Below are positions 4,374 to 23,444 of a stretch of DNA of 43,533 nucleotides, one piece after another. Position numbers and translations under genes: made by a program. Location of the stretch: assembly GCA_041687695.1 (NCBI GenBank), contig JAWLBL010000009.1, forward strand, positions 1-43,533. Reading direction: 5' to 3'. How positions within the stretch are numbered: position 1 is the stretch's first letter; each line of letters begins with the position of its first letter. The notes beneath the pieces are model-generated. The model was given only the letters and a program-made list of their open reading frames with translations, did no database searches and was not told the origin of the DNA. Source of the DNA: Myxococcota bacterium. GTDB taxonomy: Bacteria > Myxococcota_A > UBA9042 > PHBI01 > JAWLBL01.

Positions 4374-4829
4374 TCAGGCAGGCTCGAGCTCGGCCGACTC
4401 GGCCGGCCCGTTCTCGGCGACCCAGCGCGCGTACTCCTCGGCGCCCAGGCAGGCCAGGTAGTGCACGGTCACGCCGCCCGGCGAGCGCGCCAGCAGCTCC
4501 TGCAGGATGCTGTCGAGGGTGTAGTCGGTGCCGGCGTAGAGCACCTTGATGACCGTCGCGTCCGGCGCCTCGACCACACCCGAGTAGAAGATGTGGTTGT
4601 CGCCGGTCACCGTGATGGTGCCGGGCATCTGCGCCCCGCCGTTGTACAGGGCGACCGCGCGCACCGGCGAAGGCAGCCCGCGGGCCACGGCGGTCTGGAT
4701 CTTCAGGGCCTCGGAGTTGCTCAGGGGCACTCCGAACTTGGTGTAGAAGACGACGCTGCAGTTGGCCGGCACGGTGTACTTCACGCCGAAGTTCACCGAG
4801 CCGTGCGCCGAGAGCACGTAGACATCCAT
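4374..4829 (-). CDS. Stv-like domain protein, putative His/Cys (clan CD-like) peptidase fold
   Basis: VLSAHG...VP.NCSVVFY..FG...VHYLAC pattern. AGGAG RBS before ATG 4829. Confidence 0.6.
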   Translation of the reverse strand: MDVYVLSAHGSVNFGVKYTVPANCSVVFYTKFGVPLSNSEALKIQTAVARGLPSPVRAVALYNGGAQMPGTITVTGDNHIFYSGVVEAPDATVIKVLYAGTDYTLDSILQELLARSPGGVTVHYLACLGAEEYARWVAENGPAESAELEPA

Positions 4830-4905
4830 CGGATCTCCTCCTGGCCCGTCAGGGCGGGTCGAGCTGGCAGGCACCTTCCCCGTGCGAGAGCGCCGTCCTT
4901 CGGCG

Positions 4906-7737
4906 TCAGGCGCTGGGAACGTCGAGGGTGAGACCGAGGGCGACGATGGGATCGGTCGGCGAGCCGTCGGGCTGCCACGCGGGCACCGCCTGCTGCGCGC
5001 CGAAGAAGCCGACCAGGACGCCGAGGCCGTTGGGGTCGCTCTTGGTGACGGTCGTGTCGCCCGGCTGCGCGACGCCGGTCGAGACCGAGGGCGTGCCGCC
5101 CTGCCCGTCGTCGAAGCTCAGCGACAAGCTGGTGACGGTGCCCTGGGTCTGCTTGCTCGCCGGGCTGCTGCTGCCCGTCACCGAGTAGCTGGTGAGCGTC
5201 CACGGGCCGATTTCGAAGGTCACCCATTGGTAGCCGAGCTTCTGGAGCACGTCGTCGGGCGTGCCCTGGCCGTGCTGGGCGCCGGTGGCGTCCTTCCACT
5301 TGATCGCCATCAGCTCGCTGCCGCTGTCGCCGCTCTGGAACGCCACCTGGATCGACACGACCGGGGACGAGGGCGTCGCGACGTCGAAGGCCGTCGCGGG
5401 CGCGGCGGCGTTGCCGACGGCGTCCGTCTTGGCGGGCGCGAGGACCAGCAGCGACACGCTCTGCACGCTCTCGTTGGGCGCCCCCGACTTGCCGTCCGGC
5501 AGCGGCCCGTCGGTGGTGAGGGTGTAGGTGAGCGGCGTCGGCGTGGCGGGCGCGGGCGTGGTCAGCACCTGCGAGCCGCTGTTGGCACGGCGTCCGTTGG
5601 GCAGGTCGAGCGCGACCGCCCCCGGGTCGATGCGCGCCGACAGCGAGTGATCGCACGTCCAATCGAAGTCGTAGGCGACGGCGGGCAGGACCCAGGGGAG
5701 GGCCTTGCCGGCGGCCGAGAACGGGTAGGCGTGCAGGGCCAGCGTGCCGGTCGACAGCAGGGGCTCGACGGGGGGTTGCAGGAGCTTGGCCGGGCCTTCG
5801 TTGCCGCTGCCGTCGATCGGGACCAGGCGGTACTGCACGTTCGTCGTGGCGTAGGGCAGGACGGCCTGGACGGTCCGCGTGCCCGTGGAGGCGGGGTCCG
5901 TGTTGTAAGGCGGCAGCTCGGCTTGCAGCTGGCTGGGCGTGCTGCCGACGATCTGCCACAGCTGGAGGTGGTCGGTCGCCGGGGTCGCCATCATGGTGAA
6001 GGTGAGGGTGTCGCCCGGCAGGGCGGACTGCTGGTCCACGCTGAAGATGACCGCCTGGGCGGGCGGGACGGCGAGCCGGACCGAGGTGGGCGTGGCGGAG
6101 TTGGCGCCGTAGCTCTGGAGCCGATAGGCGATGATCATCGCCGTGTTGCCGGTCCGGAACGGCTGGGTGGTCGACGAGATGAAGCCTGGGATGCCGTTGG
6201 CGTCCGGCGGGCCGGACAGCGTGAACGTGACGCTCTGGCGGGCCGGGATGACGCCCTGGCCCTGGGGCTTGATGCTGAGGGTCCAGTAGGTCCCGATGGT
6301 CCCCTTGGGCGGGTTGGCGACCTTGGTCTGGACGGCCTGCCAGTCGGGGTGCTCGGGGGTGACGATGATGGTGGTCGACGCCTCGGGTGAGCACAGGGCC
6401 CCGTTGGCGGGGTCGCCCCAGGGGAAGTAGACGTAGAAGAGGTCGACCGGCCCCGGGTTGGGATCGTCGATGGGCGGCAGCTCGGTCGAGGGCAGGCCGT
6501 TGCTGACCGGGAAGTCCTGGGTCGACTGGTTCTGGAGGCTGAAGGACAGCGTGGTGGCGTTGAGCGGGTTGGGGATCTGGACCTGCGAGACGGTCGTGAC
6601 GAGCACCTCGCCGTTCCAGGGGTAGCCGAGCTGCGGCTGCGGGGGCAGCTGAGGGACGAAGTCGTGGGTCTGGGGGGTGCCGGGGCCCGACGCGGCGAGG
6701 ACCCAGGTCCCGTACAGGGTCGTGCTGGAGGTCCAGGGGTTGGCCACCAGCGCGGCGACGTCGAAGCCGACCCCCGTGTTGGGTGCCAGGGTGGCCTTGG
6801 ACTTGGGTTTGGGCGCGAAGGCCCAGTAGGTCTGCAGGTTGGCGTCGGTCATCTCCTGGACGATCCACGCCGGGTCGGCCGCGCTGATCTTCATGGCCTT
6901 GGGGTCGTCCGGGTCCGGCGCCGGCGCCAGCTCGCCGACCTGGGTCCCCCAGTCGAAGTAGACGTAGAAGACGTCGACGTCGCCGGCCGGCGGGTCGGTG
7001 ATGGCCGGCAGCGTGTCGTCGTCACGGTCGTTGACGAAGACCGCCGGGTCGACGGGCGAGGTGTTCTTCAGCGTCACCGCCAGCGTGGCGCCCTGGAAGG
7101 GGTTGTAGACCGGGACCAGCGCGTTGGTGCTGGTGTTGGCGAACACCGTGCCCGTCAGCTGGAACACCATGGGCGGGGCCTCGTCATCGACGAGCGCGCG
7201 CAGCGGCTGCTCCTTCCAGACGACCAGCTTGCGGTGCCCCAGCGCGAAGTCCCGCACGGCCCAGGCCGCGGTCAGGACGGTCGATCCCACCGGGCCCGGG
7301 GCGACGATGTCGGTGAGATCGAGCGTCAAGGACGCCCCGGGATCGAGCGTGACCCGGCCGGTCGGATAGATGGCCCACGACACGCGCGACAGGCCCTCGT
7401 GCACCCGCGCGCCGGTGCTGGTCCACCCCTCGGTCGAGGGGTTGGCGGCCAGGCGGATGCGCTCGGCCAGCGCCTCGGGGGCCAGGGCGCCGGGCCCCGA
7501 GCCGGTGGGGAAGCTGAGGTAGACGCGGTCGATCGCGCACGGCGCGGTGTCGTCGAGATCGGGCGGCTCGACGCCCGCCCCGGCGTCGTTGCGGAAGCGC
7601 AGGGGCGCGGCGCCGGTGTTGGTGAGCGTGACCTGCAGGCCGCCTACGACCGGGTCGCACGCGTCGCCCGAGACGGGGACGCTGGACGGCGAGACGGTGA
7701 CCTTCAGAGGGAGCGCGAGGGGATCCGATGCGGGCAT
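4906..7737 (-). CDS. Large protein with three internal beta-rich repeats and a C-terminal jacalin-like lectin domain
   Basis: Three repeats of L..TL.N...D..Y..F..G...L...W. C-terminus FDV..VVSIQV...LVGFFGA...IVALGL. ATG 7737 has a GAGG RBS; the alternative start is 7785. Confidence 0.75.
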   Translation of the reverse strand: MPASDPLALPLKVTVSPSSVPVSGDACDPVVGGLQVTLTNTGAAPLRFRNDAGAGVEPPDLDDTAPCAIDRVYLSFPTGSGPGALAPEALAERIRLAANPSTEGWTSTGARVHEGLSRVSWAIYPTGRVTLDPGASLTLDLTDIVAPGPVGSTVLTAAWAVRDFALGHRKLVVWKEQPLRALVDDEAPPMVFQLTGTVFANTSTNALVPVYNPFQGATLAVTLKNTSPVDPAVFVNDRDDDTLPAITDPPAGDVDVFYVYFDWGTQVGELAPAPDPDDPKAMKISAADPAWIVQEMTDANLQTYWAFAPKPKSKATLAPNTGVGFDVAALVANPWTSSTTLYGTWVLAASGPGTPQTHDFVPQLPPQPQLGYPWNGEVLVTTVSQVQIPNPLNATTLSFSLQNQSTQDFPVSNGLPSTELPPIDDPNPGPVDLFYVYFPWGDPANGALCSPEASTTIIVTPEHPDWQAVQTKVANPPKGTIGTYWTLSIKPQGQGVIPARQSVTFTLSGPPDANGIPGFISSTTQPFRTGNTAMIIAYRLQSYGANSATPTSVRLAVPPAQAVIFSVDQQSALPGDTLTFTMMATPATDHLQLWQIVGSTPSQLQAELPPYNTDPASTGTRTVQAVLPYATTNVQYRLVPIDGSGNEGPAKLLQPPVEPLLSTGTLALHAYPFSAAGKALPWVLPAVAYDFDWTCDHSLSARIDPGAVALDLPNGRRANSGSQVLTTPAPATPTPLTYTLTTDGPLPDGKSGAPNESVQSVSLLVLAPAKTDAVGNAAAPATAFDVATPSSPVVSIQVAFQSGDSGSELMAIKWKDATGAQHGQGTPDDVLQKLGYQWVTFEIGPWTLTSYSVTGSSSPASKQTQGTVTSLSLSFDDGQGGTPSVSTGVAQPGDTTVTKSDPNGLGVLVGFFGAQQAVPAWQPDGSPTDPIVALGLTLDVPSA

Positions 7738-7754
7738 GAGCGGCCTCGAGGGGG

Positions 7755-10700
7755 TCAGGTCGGCTTGGCGGCCAGGCGCAGCCATCCGTCCACGAGCTGT
7801 TGGGGGTTGGGGGACAGGTCGGCCGACGCGTCGACCGGGCCGATGTCGGTCGTGGTCACCCAGTGGGTCGGGTCCGGGTGGGTGAGGAAGGACCAGGCGC
7901 CCGTCGCGTCGGCGGTGCGCGGCACGGGCAGCGCCACGCGCTGCGAGTCCATGACCAGCGGGCCGGTGGCGAAGGTCACCGCCATCTGGGCCAGCGCTGG
8001 CGCGGTCTGGGCCGTGTCCAGCGAGACGGAGACGGACGGGAGCGCGCCGCTGAGCGCGTGCACGGGCGCCCGCGGATCCACCAGCAGGGTCAGGGTCACG
8101 GGCGACGCGGCCGGGTCCGGGCTGAGCTGCACCGGGCTATCGCCGGGCGCGAGGCCGGAGACGACGAAGCCGCTGCGGTCGCCGTCCGGCGGGGAGGGCT
8201 GGCCGAAGGCCGTGTAGAAGCGCTGGAACGCCTTGGGGTCGGCCTGCTCGTCCCCGACGAAGTAGCCGACCAGGCCGTCGAGGCTGCGCGCCGTGTCGCC
8301 GAGCACGACCGGCAGGCGGAGGTTCAGCCAGCTGTTGGCGGGGTCGTACTGGTAGCGGCCCTTGGCGGCGTCCCAGGTGGGGACCGAGGTCGGGAAGGTC
8401 GCCGTCGACGGGCGGCTCTGCTGCGTCAGCCAGGTCAGGCCGCCCAGCGACTGGTCGTAGACGGGCCGGCCGAAGAGGTCGAGCGCCATGGTGGCGCGGA
8501 CCACGGCCAGCGGGCGGCCGATGAGGAAGGGCAGCGTCGGGTCCTGCCAGCCGCCGAGCGGGTTGACGGTCCACAGGGACTCGTCGATGGCGTCGAGGAA
8601 GTCGAGCAGCGGGTTCTGGCCCGGCTCGGCCTGGCGGCACAGGGTGAGGATCGCGTCGACGAGGGCTTGCAGGTGCGGGTCGGGAAGGGTCGGGGGCGCG
8701 CCCAGCGGGGCGTCGGTCCCGGGGGCCGGGTTCCAGCGCGCGCCGCCGACGCTGGGGCCGAAGTTACCGTCGAGGGCCTGCAGCTCGCCCAGCAAGCTCC
8801 CCGTGGCGTCGTAGAACATCAGGCTGGCGTCGAGCAGGTTCGGCAGGACCCAGCCGCTGATGGGGGTGGTCGCCGGGTCCGAGGTGGCCAGCGTCGGCTG
8901 CCCGTCGGCGGGGGAGGAGGCCAGGAGCTGGAAGCGGACGCGCGCCGGCTGGGACAGGCGCGGCGGCAGCTGGGCCCAGGCGTTGTCGGGCGAGGGCGAC
9001 GAGGGCGTCAGCGCCTGCGACAGCACCGGGGTCGTGAACGGGATGGGCTGCGCCTGCCCGAAGGCGTCCACGAGCTGCAGGCTGGTCAGCTTGAGCCAGC
9101 CGGCGCGGACGGGGTTGAACGAGAAGGCCAGGTCCGGCGCCAGGTCGCTGGCGCTGGCGAGGGCCGCGTCGATGTCCTGCGGGCTGGTCTCGACCGGGCC
9201 GTTCGGCTGCCAGGGGTCGACGGGCGGCTTGGGCTCGACCAGGCCGTAGACCTTCTTGCCGAAGGCCCCGTCGAAGGGGTCGACGACCGAGAGCTGCAGG
9301 GTCTGCGACATCATGGCGAGCGCCTCGTTGAAGCCGCCGAGGGCCTGCGAGACGATCTGGAGGTCGGCGATGCGCTTGGCGGCGTCGGTGAGGGCGGCGT
9401 CGTAGGGGTCGTCGGGGTGGCCCTGCACGTAGGTGGTGATCTGCGACGACAGCTGCATCGTCGTGTTCGGGTTGATGGGGATGCGGCCCGACACCGGCAT
9501 CGGCGTGGGGGCGACGACCGGCGCCTTGGCCCAGGTGTAGTCGATGGTCGGCAGGGGCGAGGCGGCCGGGGCGTCGGCGTCGGAGGCGTCGACGGTGAGC
9601 TGCCAGCCGGTGAGCGCGTCGGCGCAGGCGGTGTTGTCGTAGCTGGGGCTGAGATCGGCGCCCCACTGAAACGCGATGGGGATCCAGGGCTGGGCCCAGT
9701 CGACCAGGCCAAGGGGCGACGGGGCGAGCCCGGCGAAGCCGTAGTCGGCGAGGTGCGCGTTGGGATCGACCGGCGGGACGCCCGGCGTGCTGGGGTCGCG
9801 GTCGGTGTCGTAGATGGCGCGGAGCTTGGTCTGCTGCGTCTGGACGCTGGGCGCGAGCGCGGCGACCTGCGCGGCTGTCGGTTGGGCGACGCCGGCCTTG
9901 ACGAGGGCGGCCTGGGCGATGGCGCCGGACAGGGCCAGGTCGAGGAAGACCATCTCGGCGACCAGGGCGGGGACCACGTTGGGGAGCGGCCCGCCCGCCG
10001 GGAAGGCGGGCAGCGCGGCCGCCAGATCGGCGGCGGTGACCTCTTGGGGCGCGGACAGGCCAGGTCCCGAGACGGTCATCGAGGTGATGGTCTGCGGCGG
10101 CTGGTCGGGCGCGAACAGGCGGCAGGCCAGCAGGCCGTCCGACCTGAAGCGGCCGTCGCCTCCGTAGCTGAAGGACCGCTCGATGCCGTCGGCCCCGGCG
10201 ATGACCACCACCGGGTCGTTCGGCTGCTCGAAGCCGGGCATCGGGACGCTGATGAGCTCGTACCCCGGCAAGGCGGACGGCAGGGCCGCGGTGAGGGTGT
10301 CGATCTGGTCGTGGATCTGCCCGACCAGGCCCGACAGGGAGGTCAGCGCCTGCGCCAGCAGGCCGGGCGCGGCGCCCGAGCCCATGAGGACCGACTGCGC
10401 GAAGCCCTTGATGGTCGTGTCGGGCGGGTACCCCTGCCCGCTGGGGCCCAGGTTGGCCTGGATGTGGGCGTACCAGGTCGCGAAGAGGGAGCGCTGCAGC
10501 GACTGGACCTGCCCGCCGGTGAGGTCGGCCTGCAGCTGCAGGCGGTTGAGCTGGGCCAGGGCCTGGCTGATGGCGGCCGGGAAGGGGACGGCCGGCGGCA
10601 CCGGCGGGGGCGGCGGATCCGAGGTCGGCGTCTGCTTGGCCGGGATGGGCCGGACGTCCCAGGTCAGCCCGCCGTTGGTGGTCCCGAACTCGCGGTCGTG

Positions 10701-11927
10701 CATCACCTCGGCCAGGGCGTTGAGCCCGTCGGGGCCCTCGAGGGCCTCCATGAGGCCGTACTGCAGGGCGTCGAGCAGCGTCTCGAGGCCGACGTCGTCG
10801 GGGAGCTTGGAGGCCACCAGGGCCGAGAGCGCCTCGATGGACGTGTTGCCGATGGCGACCTGCGGCGAGACCACCTGCGGGACGCCGCTCTGATACGGCG
10901 CCTGCGGGCCCTCCCAGTCGACGCCGTACAGGACGCCCTGGCACAGGACGTCGCCGGGGAAGGGGTCGGGCGCGCTGGACGCCGCGGGCGGGTCCGACAT
11001 GCCCGGCCAGGCCCAGCCCAGCGCCTGCATGCGCGCGACCCAGGCGTCCGCGTCGGGCAGGCCGTCGAGCGGATTGCCGGTCGACTGCGAGTACCAGCCG
11101 ACGACCATGTAGGACAGCGTGTACGGGGGCGTGTCGCCGGGGGAGTCGAGATCGCTCAGGCTGTCGTAGAAGCCGAAGACCCCGAAGCTGTTCCAGTAGT
11201 AGGCGGCGAAGAACGGATCGCCGGGGCCGAGGGCGGTCAGGAAGGGCGGCACCGTCGAGGTCTCGCCGGTCCAGCCGGTGAGCGGGGTCATCGCGCCGAT
11301 GTACTGGGCCCCGACCGCCTGGGCGAGGGACTCGTCCTGGTCCTCGGGGCACAGCGACGGCCAGGCCGAGGTGAACGAGGACGCCGTAGTCCCCTGGTAG
11401 AAGGGGTTGGTCGCGAAGGGGTTGGTCGTCAGCGGCGACAGCGCGTCGCTCTGGACGACGAAGGCCGAGACCTTGGGCGGCGTGGGCAGGGCGTTGGGGT
11501 CGGGCTTGGCGTCCGAGGGCGGCGTCATGCTGCGGACGACGAGCCAGCGGTTCGGCACGCGCGGGTACTGCACGCCGCTGTCGCCGTCCACGGTGCCCTG
11601 GGTCAGGCCGTCGGGCAGCTTCCAGCGCAGGTGCACGCCGGTGGGGACGCTGGCGTAGTCGTCGCCGCCGGTGATGGCCGAGCCCAGGCAGCCGAACGAC
11701 TGCACGAAGCTGGGGCTGAGGTCGGCGTAGTTGGCGGCCATGTTCACGAAGCGGACGCTCGTGGGCACGTTGGTGGTCGCCACCAGGGCCGACAGCTCGA
11801 CGGGCACGACGACCTGGGGGCCGAAGAGGTTGGGGCCCGGGGTCGGGACGGCGCTGTCTTCGGGCGGCGTGACGGTGTTGCAGGTGTTGCCGCTGTCGAG
11901 GGAGGCGGAGCGGGTCGGGTGCGTCAT
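7755..11927 (-). CDS. Large uncharacterised protein of the DUF6603-associated cluster (1390 aa)
   Basis: Long ORF with coding-like codon bias. Motifs GVHLRWKLPDGL, YPRVPNRWLVVR, SYMVVGWYS and IGRPLAVVR. Central amphipathic helical segment. Confidence 0.85.
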   Translation of the reverse strand: MTHPTRSASLDSGNTCNTVTPPEDSAVPTPGPNLFGPQVVVPVELSALVATTNVPTSVRFVNMAANYADLSPSFVQSFGCLGSAITGGDDYASVPTGVHLRWKLPDGLTQGTVDGDSGVQYPRVPNRWLVVRSMTPPSDAKPDPNALPTPPKVSAFVVQSDALSPLTTNPFATNPFYQGTTASSFTSAWPSLCPEDQDESLAQAVGAQYIGAMTPLTGWTGETSTVPPFLTALGPGDPFFAAYYWNSFGVFGFYDSLSDLDSPGDTPPYTLSYMVVGWYSQSTGNPLDGLPDADAWVARMQALGWAWPGMSDPPAASSAPDPFPGDVLCQGVLYGVDWEGPQAPYQSGVPQVVSPQVAIGNTSIEALSALVASKLPDDVGLETLLDALQYGLMEALEGPDGLNALAEVMHDREFGTTNGGLTWDVRPIPAKQTPTSDPPPPPVPPAVPFPAAISQALAQLNRLQLQADLTGGQVQSLQRSLFATWYAHIQANLGPSGQGYPPDTTIKGFAQSVLMGSGAAPGLLAQALTSLSGLVGQIHDQIDTLTAALPSALPGYELISVPMPGFEQPNDPVVVIAGADGIERSFSYGGDGRFRSDGLLACRLFAPDQPPQTITSMTVSGPGLSAPQEVTAADLAAALPAFPAGGPLPNVVPALVAEMVFLDLALSGAIAQAALVKAGVAQPTAAQVAALAPSVQTQQTKLRAIYDTDRDPSTPGVPPVDPNAHLADYGFAGLAPSPLGLVDWAQPWIPIAFQWGADLSPSYDNTACADALTGWQLTVDASDADAPAASPLPTIDYTWAKAPVVAPTPMPVSGRIPINPNTTMQLSSQITTYVQGHPDDPYDAALTDAAKRIADLQIVSQALGGFNEALAMMSQTLQLSVVDPFDGAFGKKVYGLVEPKPPVDPWQPNGPVETSPQDIDAALASASDLAPDLAFSFNPVRAGWLKLTSLQLVDAFGQAQPIPFTTPVLSQALTPSSPSPDNAWAQLPPRLSQPARVRFQLLASSPADGQPTLATSDPATTPISGWVLPNLLDASLMFYDATGSLLGELQALDGNFGPSVGGARWNPAPGTDAPLGAPPTLPDPHLQALVDAILTLCRQAEPGQNPLLDFLDAIDESLWTVNPLGGWQDPTLPFLIGRPLAVVRATMALDLFGRPVYDQSLGGLTWLTQQSRPSTATFPTSVPTWDAAKGRYQYDPANSWLNLRLPVVLGDTARSLDGLVGYFVGDEQADPKAFQRFYTAFGQPSPPDGDRSGFVVSGLAPGDSPVQLSPDPAASPVTLTLLVDPRAPVHALSGALPSVSVSLDTAQTAPALAQMAVTFATGPLVMDSQRVALPVPRTADATGAWSFLTHPDPTHWVTTTDIGPVDASADLSPNPQQLVDGWLRLAAKPT

Positions 11928-11930
11928 GGC

Positions 11931-12935
11931 TCAGAGCCCCTCGAGGAAGGCGTCGAGGCCGGCGCGCGCGGCGCTGGCGCGGTCGCGGGTCCGGCGTTTT
12001 GGCGTTTGGGCGAGGAGCGCCGTCTCGGGCTTCCAGGTGATGGTCACGGTGGCGGTCTGGGGGGCGTCGACCAGCTCGACGGCCAGCTCGGCCGAGGTCA
12101 TCTGCGTCAGCGGGGCCTGGCCCTGCGCGGGAGGCGGCGGCCACTCGGCGGGGCCCAGCGCCGTGACCAGGTTGGCCGCGAGCTGCGCGACGTCGAGGAC
12201 GCGCTTGTCGGCCTGGCGCCAGTTGTCGGCCACCGTCCTGAGGTCCCGGGAGGGGCCCGGGTAGGTCCCGGCGAGCTTGACGCCCAGGTCGTCGTTCTGC
12301 TTGCCCAGCCCGCGGAGATCGATCTGCCAGCCGCCCTGCGGGTCGACCGACACGCCGAACTGCAGGCCCTGCGGCGGCTGCGTCAGATCGATCGAGGCGG
12401 CCAGCCCGGTGAACAGGGCGACGAGCACCTCGCTGGACAGGGTCGCGACGCGCACGTTACCGAGCGGCTGGCCGCTGGCGTCGCGCGCCCGGATCTGCAA
12501 GCCGGGGTAGTCGGCGACCAGGCGCGAGCGGATGAGGAGGCCGCTCTGGAAGGGGCCGTCGGTGCCCTGGCCCTCGGACACGAGCTGCTGCAGGTACGAG
12601 ACGATGCCCTGATCCTGCGCCTGGTCGAGGGTCGTGGTGCGCCCGATGCTGCAGGCGCCGTCGAGCAGGGCGCGGACCCAGTTGGGGTCGACGTAGAAGA
12701 AGCGCATGGACTCGGCCGGGAGCATGCGTGGATCGGCGACCAGGTAGTTGAAGGGCACCGGGGTGAAGACGGCGAGGCCCTCGAGGAAGCCGGTGACGAC
12801 CGGCGGGATGCCGGCGGCGGGGTCGTCGCCGGCGCCGCCGAGCAGGCCGACGAAGCGCTCGGGGTCGGCGGCGAAGGCCTTGAGCACGCTCGCGCGGGGC
12901 GGCGCGGGGCGGCGGAGAGGGGCGGCCTGGGTCAT
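11931..12935 (-). CDS. Uncharacterised protein of the DUF6603-associated cluster (334 aa)
   Basis: Motifs VPFNYLV.D..MLP.ESMRFFYVD.NW..LLDGA and GLLIRS.LV..YPGL. ATGA overlap with the upstream gene and a GAGGAG RBS. Confidence 0.85.
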   Translation of the reverse strand: MTQAAPLRRPAPPRASVLKAFAADPERFVGLLGGAGDDPAAGIPPVVTGFLEGLAVFTPVPFNYLVADPRMLPAESMRFFYVDPNWVRALLDGACSIGRTTTLDQAQDQGIVSYLQQLVSEGQGTDGPFQSGLLIRSRLVADYPGLQIRARDASGQPLGNVRVATLSSEVLVALFTGLAASIDLTQPPQGLQFGVSVDPQGGWQIDLRGLGKQNDDLGVKLAGTYPGPSRDLRTVADNWRQADKRVLDVAQLAANLVTALGPAEWPPPPAQGQAPLTQMTSAELAVELVDAPQTATVTITWKPETALLAQTPKRRTRDRASAARAGLDAFLEGL

Positions 12936-14491: not shown

Positions 14492-14501
14492 GCGGCGCTC
14501 C

Positions 14502-17500
14502 TCAGGAGGCGGGGATGGGGGGGAGCTCGCCGCCCGTCGTGACGAGCGAGGGGGCGGCCTGCAGCAGGGAGGGGGCGAACTGGCGCATCACGGGCGTGGC
14601 CGGATCGGTCACCAGCTGGCTCGAGCCCGTGGCGAGCGCGGCGAAGAGGCTGGCCCGGCGCGAGGTCGCGGGGGCGGCGGGCGCCAGCGCGGCCTGCAGG
14701 GCCTCGAGGGCCGCGGTCGAGGTCGGCGCGGGGGCGGTGGGCGGCGGCGCGGGGGTGACCTCGTCCCAGGTGACGGGGACCGGCCAGTCGTCGCCCTGGG
14801 CCAGGCGCGCCTGGGGGAAGCTGGGCAGGTGGTCGACCAGGGTGACCCGCTGGGCCTGGGGCATCGGGGTGAGGGTCAGCGAGGTCAGGGCCTGGGTCAC
14901 GCCGGCGCTGCCCGAGGCGGGGACGGTCGCGCTGGCGTCGGGCGACCAGAGCGAGTCGGGGACGCTGGAGGTGGCCGGGGTGGCGACGAGGAACTCGGTC
15001 GAGTAGGGCGCGTCGTCGAAGATCAGCGTGACGTCCAGCGGCGAGGTCAGGGCCGCCTTGGACATGGGCACCACCACCAGCGGCGAGGCGTTGGTGGCGA
15101 CGACCTTGGCGTCGGACTGCGAGTGGTCCGGGTTGTCGTTGGTCGTCAACTCACTGGCCGGGACGACGCTGCGGGCGACGATCGAGAAGGCGCCGGGGTC
15201 GACGATCCAGCCGCCGTTGGGGTCGCTGCCCTGGGCGCCCGCCGCGTTGCCGAGCAGGCCCGTCGCGACGCTGGCCGTGACGACCGAGGCGCTGTTGGGG
15301 GCTGGCGCGTCGTCGTCGCCGAGGGCCGCGAGGGCGCCCCCGGGGGTGGTGGCCGAGGTCTGCGGCAGGAACGACTGGTCGAACTGGCTCCAGTCGGCGA
15401 GCGGCGCGTTCGGGTTCTCGCTGGCTCCGAAGCCGATGCTGAAGGACAGGATGTACCAGTCGACGCGGACCCGGCCACCGATGGGGGGCCCGTACAGGCG
15501 CAGGGACGCGCCCATCTCGACCTTGAACGTGTGGTGCACGAACAGCAGATCGACGCGCAGCGAGGCGCCGATGGAGATGGAGATGTCGCCGACGAAGTAG
15601 AACGGCTTCCACCACACGATGAAGTCGGCGCGCGCGTCGAACCAGGCCGCGAGCGGGCCGGCCGAGAACGTGAGCGACTGGTCGAAGCCCGCCATGGCCG
15701 CGTGGGGCGTCAGGGCGAAGTAGCACCCGCCGCGCAGCTGGATGCTGTCGTCCGGCTGCCAGTGGTAGCCGACGCGGTCGACGCTGGGGTAGTACGACGG
15801 CGGCTGGAAGGCGGGGTGGTAGCCGCCCAGGGTCAGGACGAACTCGCCCGCGTGCGGGTTGGGCGGCAGGCCGCGGCCGGGGTCGAACCACAGGTAGAAG
15901 GCGAAGCCGCCGGTCAGGTGGACGTCGGGGGCGAGCAGCCACGAGTCGGGGGTCAGCGAGGCGCCGACGGCGACCTCGCCGCGGTCGGGCATGAAGGTGA
16001 CCGAGAACTGCAGCGTGACCTGGGCGATGGCCGTCGGGACGCTGGATTTGCCGCCGACGGCGACCGGGACGGTGAGCGACGAGGTGCCCATCAGCGAGAC
16101 GATGAGCTCGCGGCCGAAGGTGGCGACGAGCATCCCGAAGGACTGCAGCATCTCGTAGGTGGTGAAGCGCAGGCCGGCGGCGAGCCAGTAGTCGCCCAGG
16201 CTGGGCGTGGCCAGCTTGGTGAAGGCGGTGGCGATGTCCGTCGGGGCCGAGTGCGGGTCGTTCGCCCAGGCCACCAGCGGGAAGGCGGCGACGGCGTCGG
16301 GCTGCGGCAGGTGCAGCTGGCTGTTGAAGCCGAAGCCCAGGGCGCCGCCGGTGATGAAGAAGGAGGGCGGGCCGCCGATCGGGGCGTCGACGACGCCGTA
16401 GACGAAGAAGGAGGGCGAGCCGTCGAGCTCGGCGTATTGGCCCGCGGCCGAGATGCCGAAGGCCCCCGCGGCCACGGTGAGCATGCCGTCGTAGGCCGTG
16501 ACCGACTTGCCGCTGATGGTGAGGGTCTGCTTGACCAGGCCGCCGCCGATGGTGACGGAGCCTCCCTCGAAGGCGACGTCGAGCCCGGCCAGATCCAGCG
16601 TGTAGGCCGAGACGTCGCCCATGTGGGTGACGGGCAGGCCGATGTCGAGCTGGACGACGTCCATCTGCAGCGGTCCGACCGCGACCTGGCCGTCGAAGCC
16701 GAGCAGGAGGTGACCGGTCGAGGGCGGGGAGGCGCCGCCGGCCCAGCCGACGCCCAGGGCGCGGCAGTACAGCGGGCCGAGCTGGCGCTGGATGGGGATC
16801 CACAGCTGGTCGGGCGTGTCGCCGTCGCCGTCGCCGTGCAGGGCCAGGTGGAAGTTGCCCGCCGGGCTGCCGGCGCCGGCGAGCTGGGCGACGTAGGACA
16901 CGGCCCCCGAGAAGGCCGGGTTGGGCGTGTCGCTGCCGAGGGCGCTGCCCATCAGGTTGTTGGCGATGGGGTTGGAGCCAGCGGCCGGTGGGCCCGAGCC
17001 GGCGAGGGGGAGCGACAGGTCGTCCAGCTCGATGGAGGCGCCGAGCCAGACGGCCGGGGTCGCGTCGGCGTAGAAGTAGACGCGAGGCTGGATGGAGCCG
17101 AGGGCGAAGCCCGCCTTGGAGACGAGCGGCCCATTGCCGGTGCCGCGGACGTCGACGCCGACGCTGGCGAGGGTCAGGGCTGGCGCGAAGGAGAGCTGCG
17201 TCGGGGCGCCCTGGGCGTCGGTGACCACCTTGACGAGGTCGATGAGGATGCCCGGCTGCGTGGGCGTGGCGTTGGGCGGTTGGAAGCCGACCTTGGCCGT
17301 CTCGGCGATCCAGTAGGGCGAGGCGTCGGCGGACTGCCAGGCGCCGACCTGCAGGACGATGCCGGGCCAGGCGCCCGGCTGGGTCAGGGACAGGTCGCGC
17401 ACCGTAAGGTCGAGCGCGTAGTCCGTCCCGGAGCCGTCGCCGGCCTTGGTGCCCGCGAGGGTGACCAGGATGCGGTAGGGGTTGTTGGGGTCGCTCGTGT

Positions 17501-20500
17501 GGTCGATGTCGAGCAGGGGCACGCCGGCGGCGGCGACGGTCTCGAGCACGGCCGAGACCAGCCGCGTGACCACGGCCAGGAAGTCGACCTGGCCGTTCTT
17601 GACGAAGCTGGCGGCGAAGGCGGTCAGGTCGGCGACGGCGAGCGGCGCGGTGGGGCCGGCGAGCAGGCCGAAGGCGCTGAGGACCTGGGCCAGGGTCGGC
17701 CCGGTGGTCATCGACGGGATGAGCGAGGTCGTCAGGGCGCGGGTGACGGTGTCGACGCGCAGGGCGAGGTCGGCGAGCAGGGGCCCCAAGAAGGTCAGCC
17801 CCAGCTGGCGCAGCCAGGACTGCCAGGCGAGCGGGGCCGGCGGGGCGGAGGCGGTCGCGCTGACGAGGCCGGGGGACGGCAGGAGCGCGACGGCCGGGAA
17901 GGCGGCGTCTCCGGTCGGCAGACCCGCCGGGTAGAAGGTGAGCGACCAGGCCGGGGCGTCGACGGTGAAGACCAGCGCCGGGCCGAGGTTGACGGGCGGG
18001 ATGCGCGCGGACTCGGGCAGGAGGACCTGCGCCGTGGCCGTGGCCGTGAACGACAGGGCGACCGTGGACGTGCCCAGCCCCGCGGCGCCGACGCCCAGGC
18101 CCGCGGAGACCTGCACCGGGCCGAGGATCACGTTCGGCGTGATGATGACGCCGAGCACGGGATCGCCCGAGTCGGCGACGTTGCCGAAGGCGACGGTGAC
18201 GGTGGCCGCCTGGGTGCCCAGCGTCGGGGTGAAGGCGAGGCGCTGGCCGCCCGGCTCCAAGGTGAAGCCGGTGAGGCCGAAGCCGGGCGCCGCGCCTCCG
18301 GAGGCGTCGGTCGCCGCCTGGCCCGAGGCCGTCTGGCCCGTCAGGAGGGTGTACAGGCCCGGGATGGAGGTCGACAGGTCGGCGACGAGGCGGCTGGCCA
18401 GCCACTGGCCGGCGGCGGCCGGGCTGCGGGCGAACATCAGGACGGCGCCGGCCAGGGCGGTGGTGTCGAAGTCGGCCGTCTTGCTGGTGTAGTCGTCGTT
18501 CGGGTCGACGAGCTTGTCGATGCCGACCGCGTTGGCGGCGAGCTGGAGGCTGGCGACCAGCTCGGAGAGGGCGGCCGGCTTGTTCGGCCAGCTCTGGAAG
18601 GCGTCCCAGGCCTTCTGGGCGACCAGCGGGAACAGGGCCTTGGCGGCGCCCGAGAGGCTGAAGCCGGTGAAGGGGACCAGCGTGATGGCGGGGAACGGTG
18701 TGCCGCCCATCTGGCCCGAGAAGGCGAGGCTGAAGCCGGCGCTGGCCGAGTAGCCGGTGATGACCGTGACCGACGAGCCGGCGAAGGCGCCGGAGGCCGG
18801 GAGCGGGAGGGTCAGCGACAGGGTGCCGGCGGGCTGGACCGGGCCCGCGGGGACGCCGTCGCGGACGGGGACGGTGAGCGAGGCGTCGAGCTGGACCTCG
18901 ACCGGCGGCGCGGGGGCGGGGAGCGTCTCGTCGATGTGGACGGCGAGCACGAGGCCGGCGGTCGCGTCGGCCGCCAGCGAGAGGGTGCTGGTGGCGAAGG
19001 GGAGCCCCGTCAGGACGACGCCGTCGCCGGCCTGGTTGGCGGCCAGGGTGACGCCGGCCGGCCCGACGACCGGCGTCGCGACGAGGCTGGCGAGGAGCTC
19101 GGCGAGGCGCTGGAGGTCGAGGTGGCCCTGGCCGTCGCCGACGACGGCGGGGCTGAGCAGCCACTCGGTCGGATGCATGAAGAGGCCGACCAGCGAGGCG
19201 GCGCGGGGCGTGCCTCCGCCCAGCGGGGTCGTCGTGAGGCCGAGCGCGCCGAGGAGGGTGCGCGCGAAGGGGCTCGAGGGCAGGACGACCGCGTCGAGGA
19301 GGCCGGTGGTCGCGGTCGCCAGGACGAAGAGCGGGACCGTGCGGCCGAAGAGGGCCTGGACGCTTTGCCCGTAGGGGGTCGAGCCGTCGAACGGCGACGG
19401 GAGGCCGCACAGGGGGATGGGATCGAAGGGGGCCGGGGTGGTCGGATCGGGGGGCGAGGTCAGGGCGAGCGACCAGGTGGCGGTCGGCTGCGAGCCGGTG
19501 TCGAGCCCGAGGCCGATGGCCGCGGTGAGGCCGGCGCCGAAGACCGTGGACCACAGCGTCGCGGTGGCGCCGAAGGTGAGCGCCTTGAGGTCGACGGTGA
19601 ACGCCGGCGCGAAGCGGAGCACGTCGGCGAAGGCGAGCGGCTGGGCGAAGTCGAGCGTGACCTGGTTGCCGTTGGTCACCGTGAGCCGGAGGCCCCAGGG
19701 CAGCGGCGGCAGGGCGGTGGGCGTGGCGACCGCCTGCAGCTCGGTGACGACCTGGGCGAGGCGCGCGGGGTCGGTGAAGAGGGCCCCGAGCTGGTCCTCG
19801 AGGTAGGTGACCGGGTGGCTCCAGAGGTCGAGCCAGCGCTGGATGACGACGGCGTGTTTGCCGCCCGAGGTCTCGGTGAGGAGGCCGACCGCCTCGAGCA
19901 GCACGGACAGGGCGGCGAGGCCGGGCGGGAGCTGGAAGGTGCGGATGCCCAGCAGGACCTGCAGGTCGGCCATGAAGGCGGCCTGCCGCTCGGGGTCGGC
20001 GAGCACGGGGGCGAGGGTCGCCTGAAGGGCGCCGTAGGGGTCGGCGACGAGGGCCTGGAAGCCCGAGGCGCTGACGGCCTGGGGCGCGCCGGAGGTGTCG
20101 GTCGTCACCAGGCCCAGGTCGGCGAGCAGGGAGAGCGCGGCCTGCAGCGGCGTGTCGGGGGCGCCGGCGTCCAGGGTCTGGACCTGGCCGGTCAGCCAGA
20201 CCATGAAGGCGCCGAGCGTGTCGGAGACCAGCTGCAGGGCCTGCGTGTCCGTCGGCGGGATCGACAGGACGATGGGCTGAGTCTGCCCGGACAGGTCGAA
20301 GGAGACGGTGGGCGTCAGCACGCCCGAGGTGTCGAGGCCGCCGCCGAGGACGGCGCGTGTGACCGTCGCGCCGGTGGGCAGGGCGGCCAGGGCGTCGCCG
20401 CTGGCGGGGGTGAAGGTGCCCTCGAGGGTGAACAGGGGGATCGCGCCGTCGGGCTGCCCCTGCGCCCCGGGCAGCGCCAGGCGGGCGACGTCGGCGCGGG

Positions 20501-23444
20501 CGACGGTCTGGAACGCGATGGGGCCCAGGGTCGCCGAGACGACGCGCTGCAGGCCGAAGCCGAGCCAGCCGGGCGCGCCGTCCGTCGACGGGTCGCTCCA
20601 GAGCAGGGCCTCGACGTCGAAGACCTGCGGGAACGCCATCCGGTACGGGTCCTCGCGGTCCCCGGCGGGCGCGGTGGCTGGGGAGTTGGCGCCCAGCGCC
20701 CAGGCGACCAGCTCGACGGCGGTCGCCGCGTAGGCGGGCTTGGCGAAGAGCGCGGACAGCTGGCCGACCAGGAGGTCCCACGGGCCCTGGAAGAAGGCCT
20801 GCCCGTCGGTGACCACGATGGTCGGCCACTGCGCGTCGGGCAGCTTGCACGGGAGCTGACCGGCCGGAGCGCTTTCGAAGTAGTCGTACAGATCCGGCAG
20901 CAGGCCGAGCACGGTGGCCGCCGCGACGCCGAACGAGCCGCCGAGCTGCAGCAGGAAGGCGCCCGCCAGGTAGACCAGCGGCTGCGCGAGCTGGGCGAGC
21001 GCCTGTCCGGCCGCCGTCTCGGGCGTGAAGATGAAGGCCAGGTCGCCCAGGGCGATGGGCCCGGCCAGGCGCGCCGAGGAGAGCGTGACCTGGCGCGCGG
21101 TGACGCCGACGTACCAGCTGGAGGCCCGGGTCCAGCCGCCGCTGGCGACCAGCGCCGACGACGCGACGGTCAGGCCGGCGACCGCGAAGGACAGGGCCGA
21201 GGCGTCGTCGCCCGAGGTGGGCGGGGCGACCTCGATGCGGGCCTCGGCCCCCGGCACCCAGACCGCGCCCAGGCCGCCGCCGGCCGCGTCGGGCAGGTGC
21301 ACGGCCACGAGGCCGACCGAGGTGGACGTGGTGAGGGTGTCGCCGCCGACGTCGAGCTGGAAGCTGCCGGTGACGCCGAGCTGCAGGTCGGCGGGGGAGG
21401 CGCTGAAGGCCGTGAGCGAGAGCGTCACGCCGCCGGAGGCGAAGAGCGGGGTCGACCAGGGGTCGAGCTGGGTCCCGGCGCCCGAGGTCGAGGCGCCGGT
21501 CCATCCGAAGACCTGCGCGAGGCCGCCGACCAGGGCGACGAAGGGCGCAGGGCCGGTCTGCGGCGCGACCAGGCTGTCGCGGAAGTAGGCGGCCAGCCAG
21601 CCGGTCGGGGAGGCCAGGAGGCGATCGAGGGCGGCGGCGTCGAGCGTGCCGTCCGCCGAGAGCAGGGTCTGGAGGGGCCACGCGCTCTGGCCGGGCGGCG
21701 GGACGATGCCGAGCGCGGCGGCGAGCGCGGCCGGAGCGCCTGAGGTGACGCCGGCCTCGAAGCCGAAGAACTTCTGCAGCTGGGCGAGCGCCTCCTGGGC
21801 CAGGATCTGCTCGCCGACCTGGATCACCTGCGCGACGTTGGTCAGGTCGATGATGGCCCACGACCCGGCCGCCGAGGTCAGGTTGGTCAGCTGGACGGTC
21901 GGGGTCACGGCGCCGAGGGCGCGCTGGTAGGCGAAGCCGGCCTGGAAGGCGCCGATCTGGAAGGTGGCGTCGGCCGCGGCCGGGTCGGGGACCGAGACGA
22001 GCGGCTTGGACGGCTCCTGGTTGCCGAGGGCGACCGAGCAGGACAGGGTCGGGAACAGGGCCAGCCCGCCCTGGCCGTCGAGGGCCAGATCGAGGACGTC
22101 GGCGTGGGCGCTGGCGACGACCACGGGGACGGTGGTGGTCCAGGTCCCCGGGAGAGCGGCGCCGCCGAAGGCGACGGAGAGTCCGGGGACGAGGTGGGAG
22201 ACGCCGTCGGCGTCGACGTCGGACCAGGCGGTCAGGTCGACCTCGAGCGGGACCTGTTGGGCTCCGATGGCGATCGTGGTGTGAAACAGGGGCAGGGCGT
22301 AGGGCGAGGCCGAGGTGCCGCGTCCGGAGACGACGGCGCCGCCTTCGCGTCCAGACTGGCCTCGGAAGGCGTCGCCGAGGGTCTCGAGCCAGCCGGCCAG
22401 CGCGTTCGGAGTGGTCACGAGCGCGCTCGCCCAGGCGAGGAAGGCGCGCTTGGCGTTCTGCGCTCGGTCGGCCGCCGAGTCGCCGAGGCTCGCGACGAGC
22501 GACCAGTCGAGCGCCGGCAGGTCGCCGGCGACGCCGAGCAGCGCGAGGGCGTCCGTGAGCAAGGCCTGCACGCGCGCCTGCGTCTCGGGCGCGACGTGGC
22601 GGAGCACCTGGGCGGCTACGACGTTGAGGCCGGCGGCGATCCAGGTCGAGGCGCCGAGCGCCTGCAGATCCGAGAGCGAGTAGTTGCCGGTCGGCTGCCC
22701 GGGCAGGGTCAGGTTGACGAAGACGAGTTCGAAGGTGGGCAGCGCGCCGGTGAACGACACGCGGGCCGCGAACTGCAGGCCGTCGAACGAGACGGCGCCC
22801 GAGCCGAACAGGCCGGCGGCGCCTTGCAGCGTGACGCCCAGCTCGAGCGGGTGGTCCTGGTCGCCGATGACGAAGGAGACCGGCGGGCTGGCCTTGCCGT
22901 CCACCTGGACGAGCGGGACCGACACGTAGGGCGTGATGGTCAGGCCGTCCGTGTCGGGGTCGACCGAGGGGGCGATGGTGAAGGCGCGGTTGACGCCCAG
23001 GCCGAAGACGGTGCCGGGTGTCGAGGGCTGCGGGCTCGCGGCGACGATGTAGAAGGGGGACGGGCGGTTGGCGCCGGCCGCGCCGCCGGTCACCGGGAGC
23101 GGCAGGTTGTACCAGAGCGCGCCGTCGAAGGCCTGCGGCACCCCCAGGGTCTGGCCGGCCGCCGAGCCGATGATCTGAGTGAGCAGCGAGAGCGCCTGCT
23201 GGACGTCGATGTCGGCGAACCCGGGGGAGCGGGTGCCGTCGCCTCGGGTCCAGCCGCGGGGGTCCTCGAACCACGCGAAGTTCACTGCGAAGCGCGAAGC
23301 GTCGTCCGGGTCGGGCACGATGAGGCCGATGAGCCGGCCGATCGCGAGGGCGAGCGGCGCCAGATCGCCGGCGTCGAACGTGAGCTGTGGCGCGGCGACG
23401 TTCGGGGTGGCGGTCGCGTCGGGCGTGAACACGGACGAGCCCAT
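14502..23444 (-). CDS. Giant (~2980 aa) DUF6603-domain protein
   Basis: The region around 15420-16810 (W.PIQRQLGPL...PIGGPPSFFITG.ALGFGFNS.L..P...LTGGFAFYLWF...GEFVLTLGGYHP.F..P..YP...ALTPHAAMAG...W.PFYF) matches the DUF6603 pattern as I recall it. Start MGSSVF at 23444 with a GAGGAG RBS. Confidence 0.8.
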   Translation of the reverse strand: MGSSVFTPDATATPNVAAPQLTFDAGDLAPLALAIGRLIGLIVPDPDDASRFAVNFAWFEDPRGWTRGDGTRSPGFADIDVQQALSLLTQIIGSAAGQTLGVPQAFDGALWYNLPLPVTGGAAGANRPSPFYIVAASPQPSTPGTVFGLGVNRAFTIAPSVDPDTDGLTITPYVSVPLVQVDGKASPPVSFVIGDQDHPLELGVTLQGAAGLFGSGAVSFDGLQFAARVSFTGALPTFELVFVNLTLPGQPTGNYSLSDLQALGASTWIAAGLNVVAAQVLRHVAPETQARVQALLTDALALLGVAGDLPALDWSLVASLGDSAADRAQNAKRAFLAWASALVTTPNALAGWLETLGDAFRGQSGREGGAVVSGRGTSASPYALPLFHTTIAIGAQQVPLEVDLTAWSDVDADGVSHLVPGLSVAFGGAALPGTWTTTVPVVVASAHADVLDLALDGQGGLALFPTLSCSVALGNQEPSKPLVSVPDPAAADATFQIGAFQAGFAYQRALGAVTPTVQLTNLTSAAGSWAIIDLTNVAQVIQVGEQILAQEALAQLQKFFGFEAGVTSGAPAALAAALGIVPPPGQSAWPLQTLLSADGTLDAAALDRLLASPTGWLAAYFRDSLVAPQTGPAPFVALVGGLAQVFGWTGASTSGAGTQLDPWSTPLFASGGVTLSLTAFSASPADLQLGVTGSFQLDVGGDTLTTSTSVGLVAVHLPDAAGGGLGAVWVPGAEARIEVAPPTSGDDASALSFAVAGLTVASSALVASGGWTRASSWYVGVTARQVTLSSARLAGPIALGDLAFIFTPETAAGQALAQLAQPLVYLAGAFLLQLGGSFGVAAATVLGLLPDLYDYFESAPAGQLPCKLPDAQWPTIVVTDGQAFFQGPWDLLVGQLSALFAKPAYAATAVELVAWALGANSPATAPAGDREDPYRMAFPQVFDVEALLWSDPSTDGAPGWLGFGLQRVVSATLGPIAFQTVARADVARLALPGAQGQPDGAIPLFTLEGTFTPASGDALAALPTGATVTRAVLGGGLDTSGVLTPTVSFDLSGQTQPIVLSIPPTDTQALQLVSDTLGAFMVWLTGQVQTLDAGAPDTPLQAALSLLADLGLVTTDTSGAPQAVSASGFQALVADPYGALQATLAPVLADPERQAAFMADLQVLLGIRTFQLPPGLAALSVLLEAVGLLTETSGGKHAVVIQRWLDLWSHPVTYLEDQLGALFTDPARLAQVVTELQAVATPTALPPLPWGLRLTVTNGNQVTLDFAQPLAFADVLRFAPAFTVDLKALTFGATATLWSTVFGAGLTAAIGLGLDTGSQPTATWSLALTSPPDPTTPAPFDPIPLCGLPSPFDGSTPYGQSVQALFGRTVPLFVLATATTGLLDAVVLPSSPFARTLLGALGLTTTPLGGGTPRAASLVGLFMHPTEWLLSPAVVGDGQGHLDLQRLAELLASLVATPVVGPAGVTLAANQAGDGVVLTGLPFATSTLSLAADATAGLVLAVHIDETLPAPAPPVEVQLDASLTVPVRDGVPAGPVQPAGTLSLTLPLPASGAFAGSSVTVITGYSASAGFSLAFSGQMGGTPFPAITLVPFTGFSLSGAAKALFPLVAQKAWDAFQSWPNKPAALSELVASLQLAANAVGIDKLVDPNDDYTSKTADFDTTALAGAVLMFARSPAAAGQWLASRLVADLSTSIPGLYTLLTGQTASGQAATDASGGAAPGFGLTGFTLEPGGQRLAFTPTLGTQAATVTVAFGNVADSGDPVLGVIITPNVILGPVQVSAGLGVGAAGLGTSTVALSFTATATAQVLLPESARIPPVNLGPALVFTVDAPAWSLTFYPAGLPTGDAAFPAVALLPSPGLVSATASAPPAPLAWQSWLRQLGLTFLGPLLADLALRVDTVTRALTTSLIPSMTTGPTLAQVLSAFGLLAGPTAPLAVADLTAFAASFVKNGQVDFLAVVTRLVSAVLETVAAAGVPLLDIDHTSDPNNPYRILVTLAGTKAGDGSGTDYALDLTVRDLSLTQPGAWPGIVLQVGAWQSADASPYWIAETAKVGFQPPNATPTQPGILIDLVKVVTDAQGAPTQLSFAPALTLASVGVDVRGTGNGPLVSKAGFALGSIQPRVYFYADATPAVWLGASIELDDLSLPLAGSGPPAAGSNPIANNLMGSALGSDTPNPAFSGAVSYVAQLAGAGSPAGNFHLALHGDGDGDTPDQLWIPIQRQLGPLYCRALGVGWAGGASPPSTGHLLLGFDGQVAVGPLQMDVVQLDIGLPVTHMGDVSAYTLDLAGLDVAFEGGSVTIGGGLVKQTLTISGKSVTAYDGMLTVAAGAFGISAAGQYAELDGSPSFFVYGVVDAPIGGPPSFFITGGALGFGFNSQLHLPQPDAVAAFPLVAWANDPHSAPTDIATAFTKLATPSLGDYWLAAGLRFTTYEMLQSFGMLVATFGRELIVSLMGTSSLTVPVAVGGKSSVPTAIAQVTLQFSVTFMPDRGEVAVGASLTPDSWLLAPDVHLTGGFAFYLWFDPGRGLPPNPHAGEFVLTLGGYHPAFQPPSYYPSVDRVGYHWQPDDSIQLRGGCYFALTPHAAMAGFDQSLTFSAGPLAAWFDARADFIVWWKPFYFVGDISISIGASLRVDLLFVHHTFKVEMGASLRLYGPPIGGRVRVDWYILSFSIGFGASENPNAPLADWSQFDQSFLPQTSATTPGGALAALGDDDAPAPNSASVVTASVATGLLGNAAGAQGSDPNGGWIVDPGAFSIVARSVVPASELTTNDNPDHSQSDAKVVATNASPLVVVPMSKAALTSPLDVTLIFDDAPYSTEFLVATPATSSVPDSLWSPDASATVPASGSAGVTQALTSLTLTPMPQAQRVTLVDHLPSFPQARLAQGDDWPVPVTWDEVTPAPPPTAPAPTSTAALEALQAALAPAAPATSRRASLFAALATGSSQLVTDPATPVMRQFAPSLLQAAPSLVTTGGELPPIPAS

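Follow-up and report, generated by a model that had tools for sequence, protein, structure and literature searches.

The question raised by this locus is whether six adjacent genes, which face the same way and fill positions 4374 to 23444 of the window (the whole stretch of 43,533 nucleotides analysed here), encode one machine, and what such a machine would do. We tentatively favour, at somewhat less than even confidence, an undescribed released particle that binds its targets by swappable arms, engages membranes through its largest subunit and brings enzymes with it. All six genes, which lie on the minus strand, passed a check of their open reading frames: gene A (14502 to 23444, 2980 aa), gene B (12932 to 14491, 519 aa), gene C (11931 to 12935, 334 aa) and gene D (7755 to 11927, 1390 aa) are assigned to core subunits, gene E (4906 to 7737, 943 aa) to a variable arm, and gene F (4374 to 4829, 151 aa) to a stand-alone Stv domain. 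The intergenic gaps from A to F are 10, −4, 3, 17 and 76 bp, and the ribosome-binding site reads GAGGAG for A, B, C and F, GAGGGG for D and GAGG for E. The GC content at the third codon position is 0.93–0.98 for the six genes, and the codon-position pattern was wrong in all five overlapping long frames tested. The number, sizes, gaps and ribosome-binding sites of the genes described in the earlier note were all confirmed by the reading frames, the upstream sequence and the codon-position GC. Each gene is present in one copy, and no paralogue was found in the genome.

Pfam names only DUF6603 in A and Stv in F, and searches of NCBIfam, PHROGs and PADLOC with the six proteins gave no useful match. 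No T6SS, tail or transporter family was matched by the six proteins in any of these four collections, which agrees with what had been read from the letters at the outset. MYXO-CTERM gave three matches above the cut-off in the genome, in keeping with the myxobacterial-type host that the earlier note had proposed. The flanks are ordinary, with a GDSL-like DUF459 gene on one side and FtsK and CTP synthase on the other, and neither a sigma-70 promoter nor a terminator at the 3' end was found. About 240 bp upstream of gene A lies a tandem 17-bp direct repeat (23686 to 23720, no strand assigned; 16/17 identical, period 18, A+T-rich for the genome) with a pattern unique in the genome, which is possibly a regulator site. 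A 118-aa gene with its own ribosome-binding site (23927–24283, minus strand; no Pfam match) lies 480 bp upstream of A and is followed by a hairpin at 23809–23850. Just downstream of F, an exact 18-bp direct repeat (4162–4179 and 4341–4358) and a 26-bp inverted repeat within 4214–4328 may be REP-like or may mark a boundary of the cassette. An open reading frame at the start of the contig (188–1381, minus strand) shows a weak C-terminal HNH match (E = 1.7e-4).

GTDB species genomes hold at least 328 core-related stretches, the number of coding stretches matched with an alignment of 60 relatives of B, and a profile of A matched 3217 clusters at 50% identity with E ≤ 1e-30. The best 80 of the 328 were fetched, and these 80 loci were selected on B. 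According to their titles, they span Proteobacteria, Acidobacteriota, Bacteroidota, Actinomycetota, Bacillota, Cyanobacteria, Nitrospira and others, and the same core is present in both monoderm and diderm hosts. BLAST with the window proteins gave matches to A and to C in 77 of the 80 loci each, to D in 73 and to E in 2, but none to F. All four core genes were found in 69 loci, and their order was A-B-C-D in 69 of 69, with median gaps in cassette loci of 7, 3, −4 and 16 bp. Among the remaining 11 loci, nine run into the end of a contig, the C slot of one holds a gene under the BLAST cut-off, and one (L058) is without A. B and C are fused in 29/80 loci and B stands alone in 50/80; A, B and C are fused in two metagenome proteins (P0275 and P0276). 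These fusions imply that the encoded proteins are physical partners. Across 50 loci, the pairwise identities of the four core proteins rise and fall together (Pearson 0.85–0.94). A conserved, syntenic multi-gene unit across bacteria, as claimed beforehand, is thus supported by the order, the co-varying identities and the fusions, and the neighbourhood check for non-syntenic homologues found synteny held in every full locus.

The tree of 57 D proteins mixes phyla, and the D protein of the window groups with an actinobacterial locus (support 0.999) that also has a long-form A. By these comparisons, the genes of the cassette travel together. We found it on 9 plasmid records, including pSCL4, the megaplasmid of the laboratory strain Streptomyces clavuligerus ATCC 27064, where a complete cassette (L127:8801-22017) consists of an MBL-like gene, A, B+C, D and an arm. 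One copy adjoins transposases and a CATRA/CHAT conflict locus, and searches for B in phage records and in IMG/VR gave no match. The spread over bacteria and fungi named in the earlier note holds for bacteria; on the fungal side it amounts to one B+C fusion protein in a record named for the lichen fungus Squamulea.

Within the phylum of the window, DUF6603 exceeded the cut-off in 12 of 301 genomes and in none of six sampled genomes of the same order. The other eleven DUF6603 genomes comprise six with A-B-C-D, one with A-B-C without D (G227), one with a contig too short, and three which, like two further loci of one A-B-C-D genome, have a divergent layout with similar sizes. The divergent subtype (L027, L028, L029/L030, L035 and L036) has proteins of about 1150, 850–980, 1200–1570 and 510–590 aa. 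Its five loci in four genomes gave weak B-profile matches in two and no C or D matches, and they were left out of the cassette count. PhoD-like genes lie upstream in two of the divergent loci. The sparse occurrence in the phylum and the presence of the core in many non-predatory lineages do not bear out the predatory use suggested earlier, and a predation-specific role was rejected.

These data also bear on the possibility that the six genes lie together by chance or with only loose linkage and share no product. The invariant order of A to D, the overlaps, the fusions and the conserved slot for the arm refute it for A to E; it holds for F as far as tested. As an account of all six genes, it is scarcely credible. 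F is a full Stv domain (PF21527, E = 1.7e-10, 42.1 bits against a cut-off of 24.2), and in an alignment with another Stv protein its His9 and Cys127 fall on the corresponding residues. The small putative Cys-protease of the earlier note is supported, as a His-Cys, protease-like Stv protein, by these two candidate catalytic residues. A search of 62 genomes found Stv in 2, with the other match outside the fetched cassette locus, which indicates that F is a local accessory. The claim that all six genes form one machine fails on this point, given the absence of F from the BLAST matches in the 80 loci, and a fixed six-gene machine was rejected since F is not conserved with the core. The PDB sequence search with F gave no useful match, and its single metagenome match was rejected as chance, as it has neither the His nor the Cys and no core gene nearby. 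In the available part of the preprint that defined it (bioRxiv 10.1101/2022.08.23.504947), the Stv domain ends Rhs and C80-peptidase toxin proteins, and a toxin or protease role is proposed. Those proteins and F both carry the conserved His and Cys, whereas F stands alone at the end of a DUF6603 cassette. F may be cargo, a processing protease or a passenger.

The only core protein with a named domain is A, where DUF6603 (PF20248) covers residues 2218–2755 (15180 to 16793, minus strand; E = 1.9e-128, 429.6 bits against a cut-off of 27) and profile positions 1–498 of 502. The AlphaFold2 model of the last 832 aa (pLDDT 79) predicts an open 26-strand meander followed by a small beta/alpha tail. 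The strands are 5–19 aa long, with a mean of about 12, and come in runs of 10, 8 and 8. Face analysis of 50 sequences indicates that one face of the predicted sheet is hydrophobic and nearly charge-free: in the last eight strands it is 41–100% large hydrophobic and 0–3% charged, and in the first strands it is less clean. The best Foldseek rows were the SlpA barrel (E = 5e-5, TM 0.21, rmsd 20), FadL and an apoB100 fragment, 318 of whose 423 residues were aligned to the model (Foldseek E = 3.5e-3; VIA Z 11.8, rmsd 14). VIA ranked porins, Tom40/VDAC and apoB together at Z 11–12.6, mostly with rmsd 9–16, and the lowest rmsd was 5.8 over 236 residues, to SlpA. These high-rmsd matches indicate that the predicted sheet is locally like a barrel wall with a different curvature, and the likeness of the model to porin walls and to the apoB100 belt is a loose one (rmsd about 6–16 Å). 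No VPS13, ATG2 or TamB chain was among the best 50 VIA matches listed for A; we take AsmA and TamB to belong with the RBG lipid transfer proteins.

The A protein of the window is a rare long form, in which strand-rich and helix-rich segments alternate along an N-terminal extension of 2200 aa. Its only full-length relatives found were P0272, P0241 and L039. Among 221 relatives, the N-terminal part has a median of 807 aa, and the total length of A varies from about 950 to more than 3000 aa. The earlier note had called A repetitive, which is weakly supported by profiles and not by self-BLAST, in which no repeats were found. Profile matches relate three segments at residues ~350–480, 640–760 and 910–1040 (20325 to 22397, minus strand), each made of a helix, a G.GT..DP[WY] motif and strands; the off-diagonal matches among four long-form A proteins reach E = 9e-8, and the profiles add one tandem pair at residues ~1100–1240. 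The PDB sequence search with A gave no useful match, nor did ESM Atlas with residues 300–1250. In loci with a short A (about 950–1070 aa), small unannotated genes in clusters of 10 and 4 lie just upstream (e.g., L045:6493-6945, L046:6279-6938 and L080:6342-6827) and resemble detached N-terminal strands of A.

The predicted sheet raises an alternative in which the sheet of A and its helical inserts wrap or channel lipid in the manner of the apoB100 belt or of a bridge, with B, C and D as a cap; the arm would tether the assembly to a surface, and the producer would use the enzymes to harvest or remodel lipids. The one-faced 26-strand sheet, with strands close in length to those of the apoB belt (mean 11 aa in the available text of PMC11839476), the alignment of most of the apoB100 fragment and the varying length of A are consistent with such a scaffold. 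However, the apoB match is tied with porins at high rmsd, the bridge-like lipid transfer proteins are absent from the best matches listed, and the five-strand RBG repeat is absent from the model. Fast-changing arm tips and a spread that crosses phyla also fit conflict better than housekeeping. With the lipid-acting enzymes considered below, we regard this scaffold as unlikely, though the likeliest of the alternatives. A related idea takes A for the bacterial equivalent of the apoB100 belt, an extended amphipathic sheet, helical inserts included, which would wrap lipid or cut out a patch of target membrane; together with B, C, D and an exchangeable arm, A would make up a targeted lipid–protein particle with membrane-acting enzymes. 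This we consider unlikely and speculative.

B, C and D belong to no known family. The model of B (pLDDT 74.7) predicts a long N-terminal beta-hairpin, an Ig-like sandwich with inserts and a long C-terminal helix. Foldseek gave no match to it at E ≤ 0.001 in PDB or BFVD, the best VIA Z was 4.6, and the fold searches returned only common Ig-like and helix matches. Against PDB sequences, C gave nothing below E 0.2 and D nothing below E 0.028; ESM Atlas placed D in unnamed clusters only. Exact patterns of D alone against GTDB found no relative, and relatives were later found by the B alignment. In the alignment of 57 D proteins, the ends are strand-like and conserved, with a central helical segment at ~450–560. 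In 17/56 D relatives there is an extra C-terminal domain of a type shared with arm proteins, which suggests that the arms dock on D; D is probably the attachment point of the arm.

E consists of three repeats (residues 20–149, 207–335 and 382–511), which appear Ig-like from their sequence pattern, followed by a strand-rich stalk and a tip. A profile of the repeat matched three times in E (E ≤ 9e-19) and in 35/63 genes after D elsewhere, and 58/63 genes after D fall in one BLAST cluster. Their ends differ: among 49 scanned genes in this position, 17 carry Kelch, 9 Fib_succ_major, 5 a lactonase/WD propeller, 4 a tail collar (3 of them weak), 1 radical SAM and 13 none. In one close pair of loci (L083/L107), the core is 92–96% identical, the arm is 69% identical over residues 1–531 and the tips are unaligned; in another (L074/L102), the core is 63–70% and the arms are 38–56% identical. 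The arm diverges faster than the core in close pairs, and some tips cannot be aligned. Phage-fibre modules (collar, S74 chaperone and Gp10_C) lie nearby in several loci. The attachment part proposed before is therefore supported in the form of a variable arm by the repeat profile, the variety of tips and the divergence in close pairs. The glycan-binding lectin tip proposed with it is not. The tip of E (4909 to 5445, minus strand; last 179 aa) has no database match, neither in Pfam nor in PDB sequences nor in a scan of the genome with Jacalin (PF01419), and 300 other genomes gave matches in 4, only at E ≥ 0.001. By eye alone, it resembles a jacalin-type beta-prism. Separately, in two loci from gut Clostridia (L060:16955-17944 and L079:8455-10797), the gene in the arm slot is fused to a radical SAM/SPASM domain or followed by one.

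Signal peptides were called by a crude rule of our own, which flagged A in 2/68 cases, B, C or B+C in 0/127, D in 1/71, arms in 1/64 and upstream genes in 1/51. The leaderless subunits reported earlier are supported at the level of this rule. Among 324 flanking proteins compared with Pfam (a chosen subset, mostly co-oriented), no recurring export or lysis gene was found. Since the subunits have no signal peptides and the locus no transporter, release would probably occur by lysis or another non-classical route. The same rule flagged 17/51 genes lying two after D, mostly one 22-member propeller family of 610–780 aa with Sec-type signal peptides, which follows the arm in one clade and is not in the window. 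An example is L040:18337-20319, a candidate exported partner or immunity protein.

This propeller family is relevant to a second alternative, a surface appendage or adhesin, in which the core would build a scaffold on the envelope of the producer itself and present arms and enzymes there, with no delivery into other cells. The presence of the family in 22 loci, and Ig-like arms with lectin-fold and fibre tips, agree with an appendage, as does a glycosyltransferase-2 gene after the arm in a five-locus cluster (L080, L082, L085, L095 and L105, about 18400–20450; two confirmed by domain scan), which hints at glycosylation of the product. However, core and arms have neither signal peptides nor anchors, and the same core is found in hosts of both monoderm and diderm type, where no export gene is conserved with it. 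An appendage is therefore considered improbable.

In favour of the released particle, the main support for delivery is a variable hydrolase slot upstream of A, as identified from domain matches in other loci and thus hidden from a reader of the window alone. Among 60 loci with enough upstream DNA, 22 have a hydrolase within 2.5 kb upstream of A: EEP in 8, MBL in 7, patatin in 3, PLD in 2, alpha/beta in 1 and M14 in 1. The EEP and MBL genes are mutually related and do not count as independent events. Catalytic motifs are present in most of these enzymes, and PhoD-like and subtilase genes lie upstream in three further loci. In most cases the enzyme gene directly adjoins A without an intervening gene, and no immunity gene is evident in that position. 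One A relative has a weak N-terminal MBL match. No recognisable upstream enzyme was found in the other 38 loci or in the window.

The content of the slot also bears on the alternatives. Patatin and PLD act on lipids, and the EEP and PhoD families include lipid-acting members, which favours the lipid-carrying scaffold; the peptidases (M14 and S8) that also occupy the slot speak against it. Patatin and PLD serve as defence effectors as well. A third alternative is an intracellular complex that serves in stress, in defence or in the remodelling of membranes: its variable arm would detect an invader or a ligand inside the cell, and the enzyme would carry out the response. The leaderless subunits and the patchy, mobile distribution on plasmids and beside transposases and a conflict locus are consistent with it. 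However, PADLOC matched none of the six proteins, the tips are of extracellular binding types (Fib_succ_major and tail collar), and no NTPase or sensor domain was found in the core proteins. We consider an intracellular complex quite improbable.

The released particle that we favour would work as follows. A, B, C and D would assemble in the cytoplasm into one large particle, E would dock on D as an exchangeable arm and pick the target, and the hydrophobic sheet of A would engage the target membrane by inserting into it or pulling lipid from it. A variable leaderless enzyme would thereby be brought to or across that membrane, after release of the particle without Sec or Tat. Elsewhere the enzyme would be the one encoded just upstream of A; in the window, where this slot is empty, F or the N-terminal extension of A are candidates. 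We infer assembly, release, target binding, membrane engagement and toxicity from gene-level facts and a predicted sheet. Several observations count against the particle: the missing enzyme in 38/60 loci and in the window, together with a raw hydrolase count in which the EEP and MBL genes are related; the Sec-type signal in the propeller gene of the 22-locus clade, which does not fit a purely leaderless particle; the genome without D, the locus without A, the unassigned tip of E and an F that is not conserved with the core; and the absence of an evident immunity gene and of a recurring export or lysis gene.

As for existing descriptions, RefSeq labels one homologous plasmid locus as a DUF6603 domain-containing protein followed by hypothetical proteins. 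The PF20248 family has no assigned function, and none of B, C, D and E belongs to a known family. Within the main texts of the open literature searched, no paper names DUF6603 or PF20248, and likewise none was found for IPR046538, which we take to be the InterPro number of DUF6603. A keyword search of titles and abstract starts in the open literature returned nothing that describes the cassette, and the available main text of the Lipocone paper (10.1101/2025.01.14.632903; supplements outside the scope) contains no description of it. The core is thus widespread, with at least 328 stretches in GTDB, yet no part of it has an assigned function, a solved relative or a paper.

The closest comparison proposed in the earlier note was with the Tc toxins TcA/TcB/TcC (available parts of PMC7264150 and PMC10847048). 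In common with the cassette, these combine within a single locus subunits of great size that have no leader, receptor-binding parts that vary and an enzyme that varies too, and their release by lysis is a plausible parallel. In contrast, the Tc enzyme is a C-terminal tail held in a cocoon, whereas that of the cassette has its own gene upstream or is fused N-terminally. No TcA, SpvB or RHS family was matched in the six proteins, the A, C and D profiles gave no TcA-type match by sequence, and the listed fold matches of B or of the C-terminal part of A include no Tc chain, only an Rhs core at E = 0.038. Membership of the Tc family was rejected because RHS/SpvB features were not found in the six proteins, and the functional analogy drawn in the earlier note reduces to a likeness in logic. 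The one SpvB match of the genome lies on another contig (G000:C16:169176-169658) in a 2088-aa open frame.

The Streptomyces umbrella toxin particle UmbA/B/C (available part of PMC11062931) shares with the cassette a scaffold, exchangeable arms with binding tips and a polymorphic effector. UmbC, as described there, contains ALF repeats, carries a signal for Tat export and ends in a toxin, whereas none of these was found in the cassette, which spans many phyla: no ALF family was matched in the six proteins, and the N-termini of the core are not signal-like under the crude rule. With regard to contractile systems, no sheath, tube, spike or baseplate gene was found in the six proteins or in the flanking proteins scanned, except for the collar, Gp10_C and S74 modules, and VasE gave no match in the host genome (G000, 99% complete); judged by the families scanned, the cassette is neither a T6SS nor a tailocin.

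For the sheet itself, the bridge-like RBG proteins VPS13 and ATG2, whose repeat consists of five strands and a helix-loop (available part of PMC7613979), have in common with A a long meander, one hydrophobic face, helix-loop crossings and a length that varies among homologues. A differs in its modelled runs of 10, 8 and 8 strands and in having no membrane anchor or export signal; RBG membership was rejected since the five-strand repeat is absent from the modelled C-terminal 832 aa. Outer-membrane barrels match at Z up to 12.6, whereas A has no signal peptide and occurs in monoderm hosts; several copies of A might still form an oligomeric barrel. The apoB100 belt (PDB 9coo) is a continuous amphipathic sheet with helical inserts (available text of PMC11839476), and it shares with A this type of sheet, the strand length, the inserts and the local match, but the rmsd is 14, the identity is 6–10%, porins score equally, and there is no sequence homology. 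If the comparison were true, an apoB-like particle would represent a principle of delivery unlike syringes, pores and Rhs cocoons, distributed across bacterial phyla and into fungi. The novelty of the cassette lies in its parts; its design, which combines a scaffold with an arm and an effector, follows the logic of conflict systems already known.
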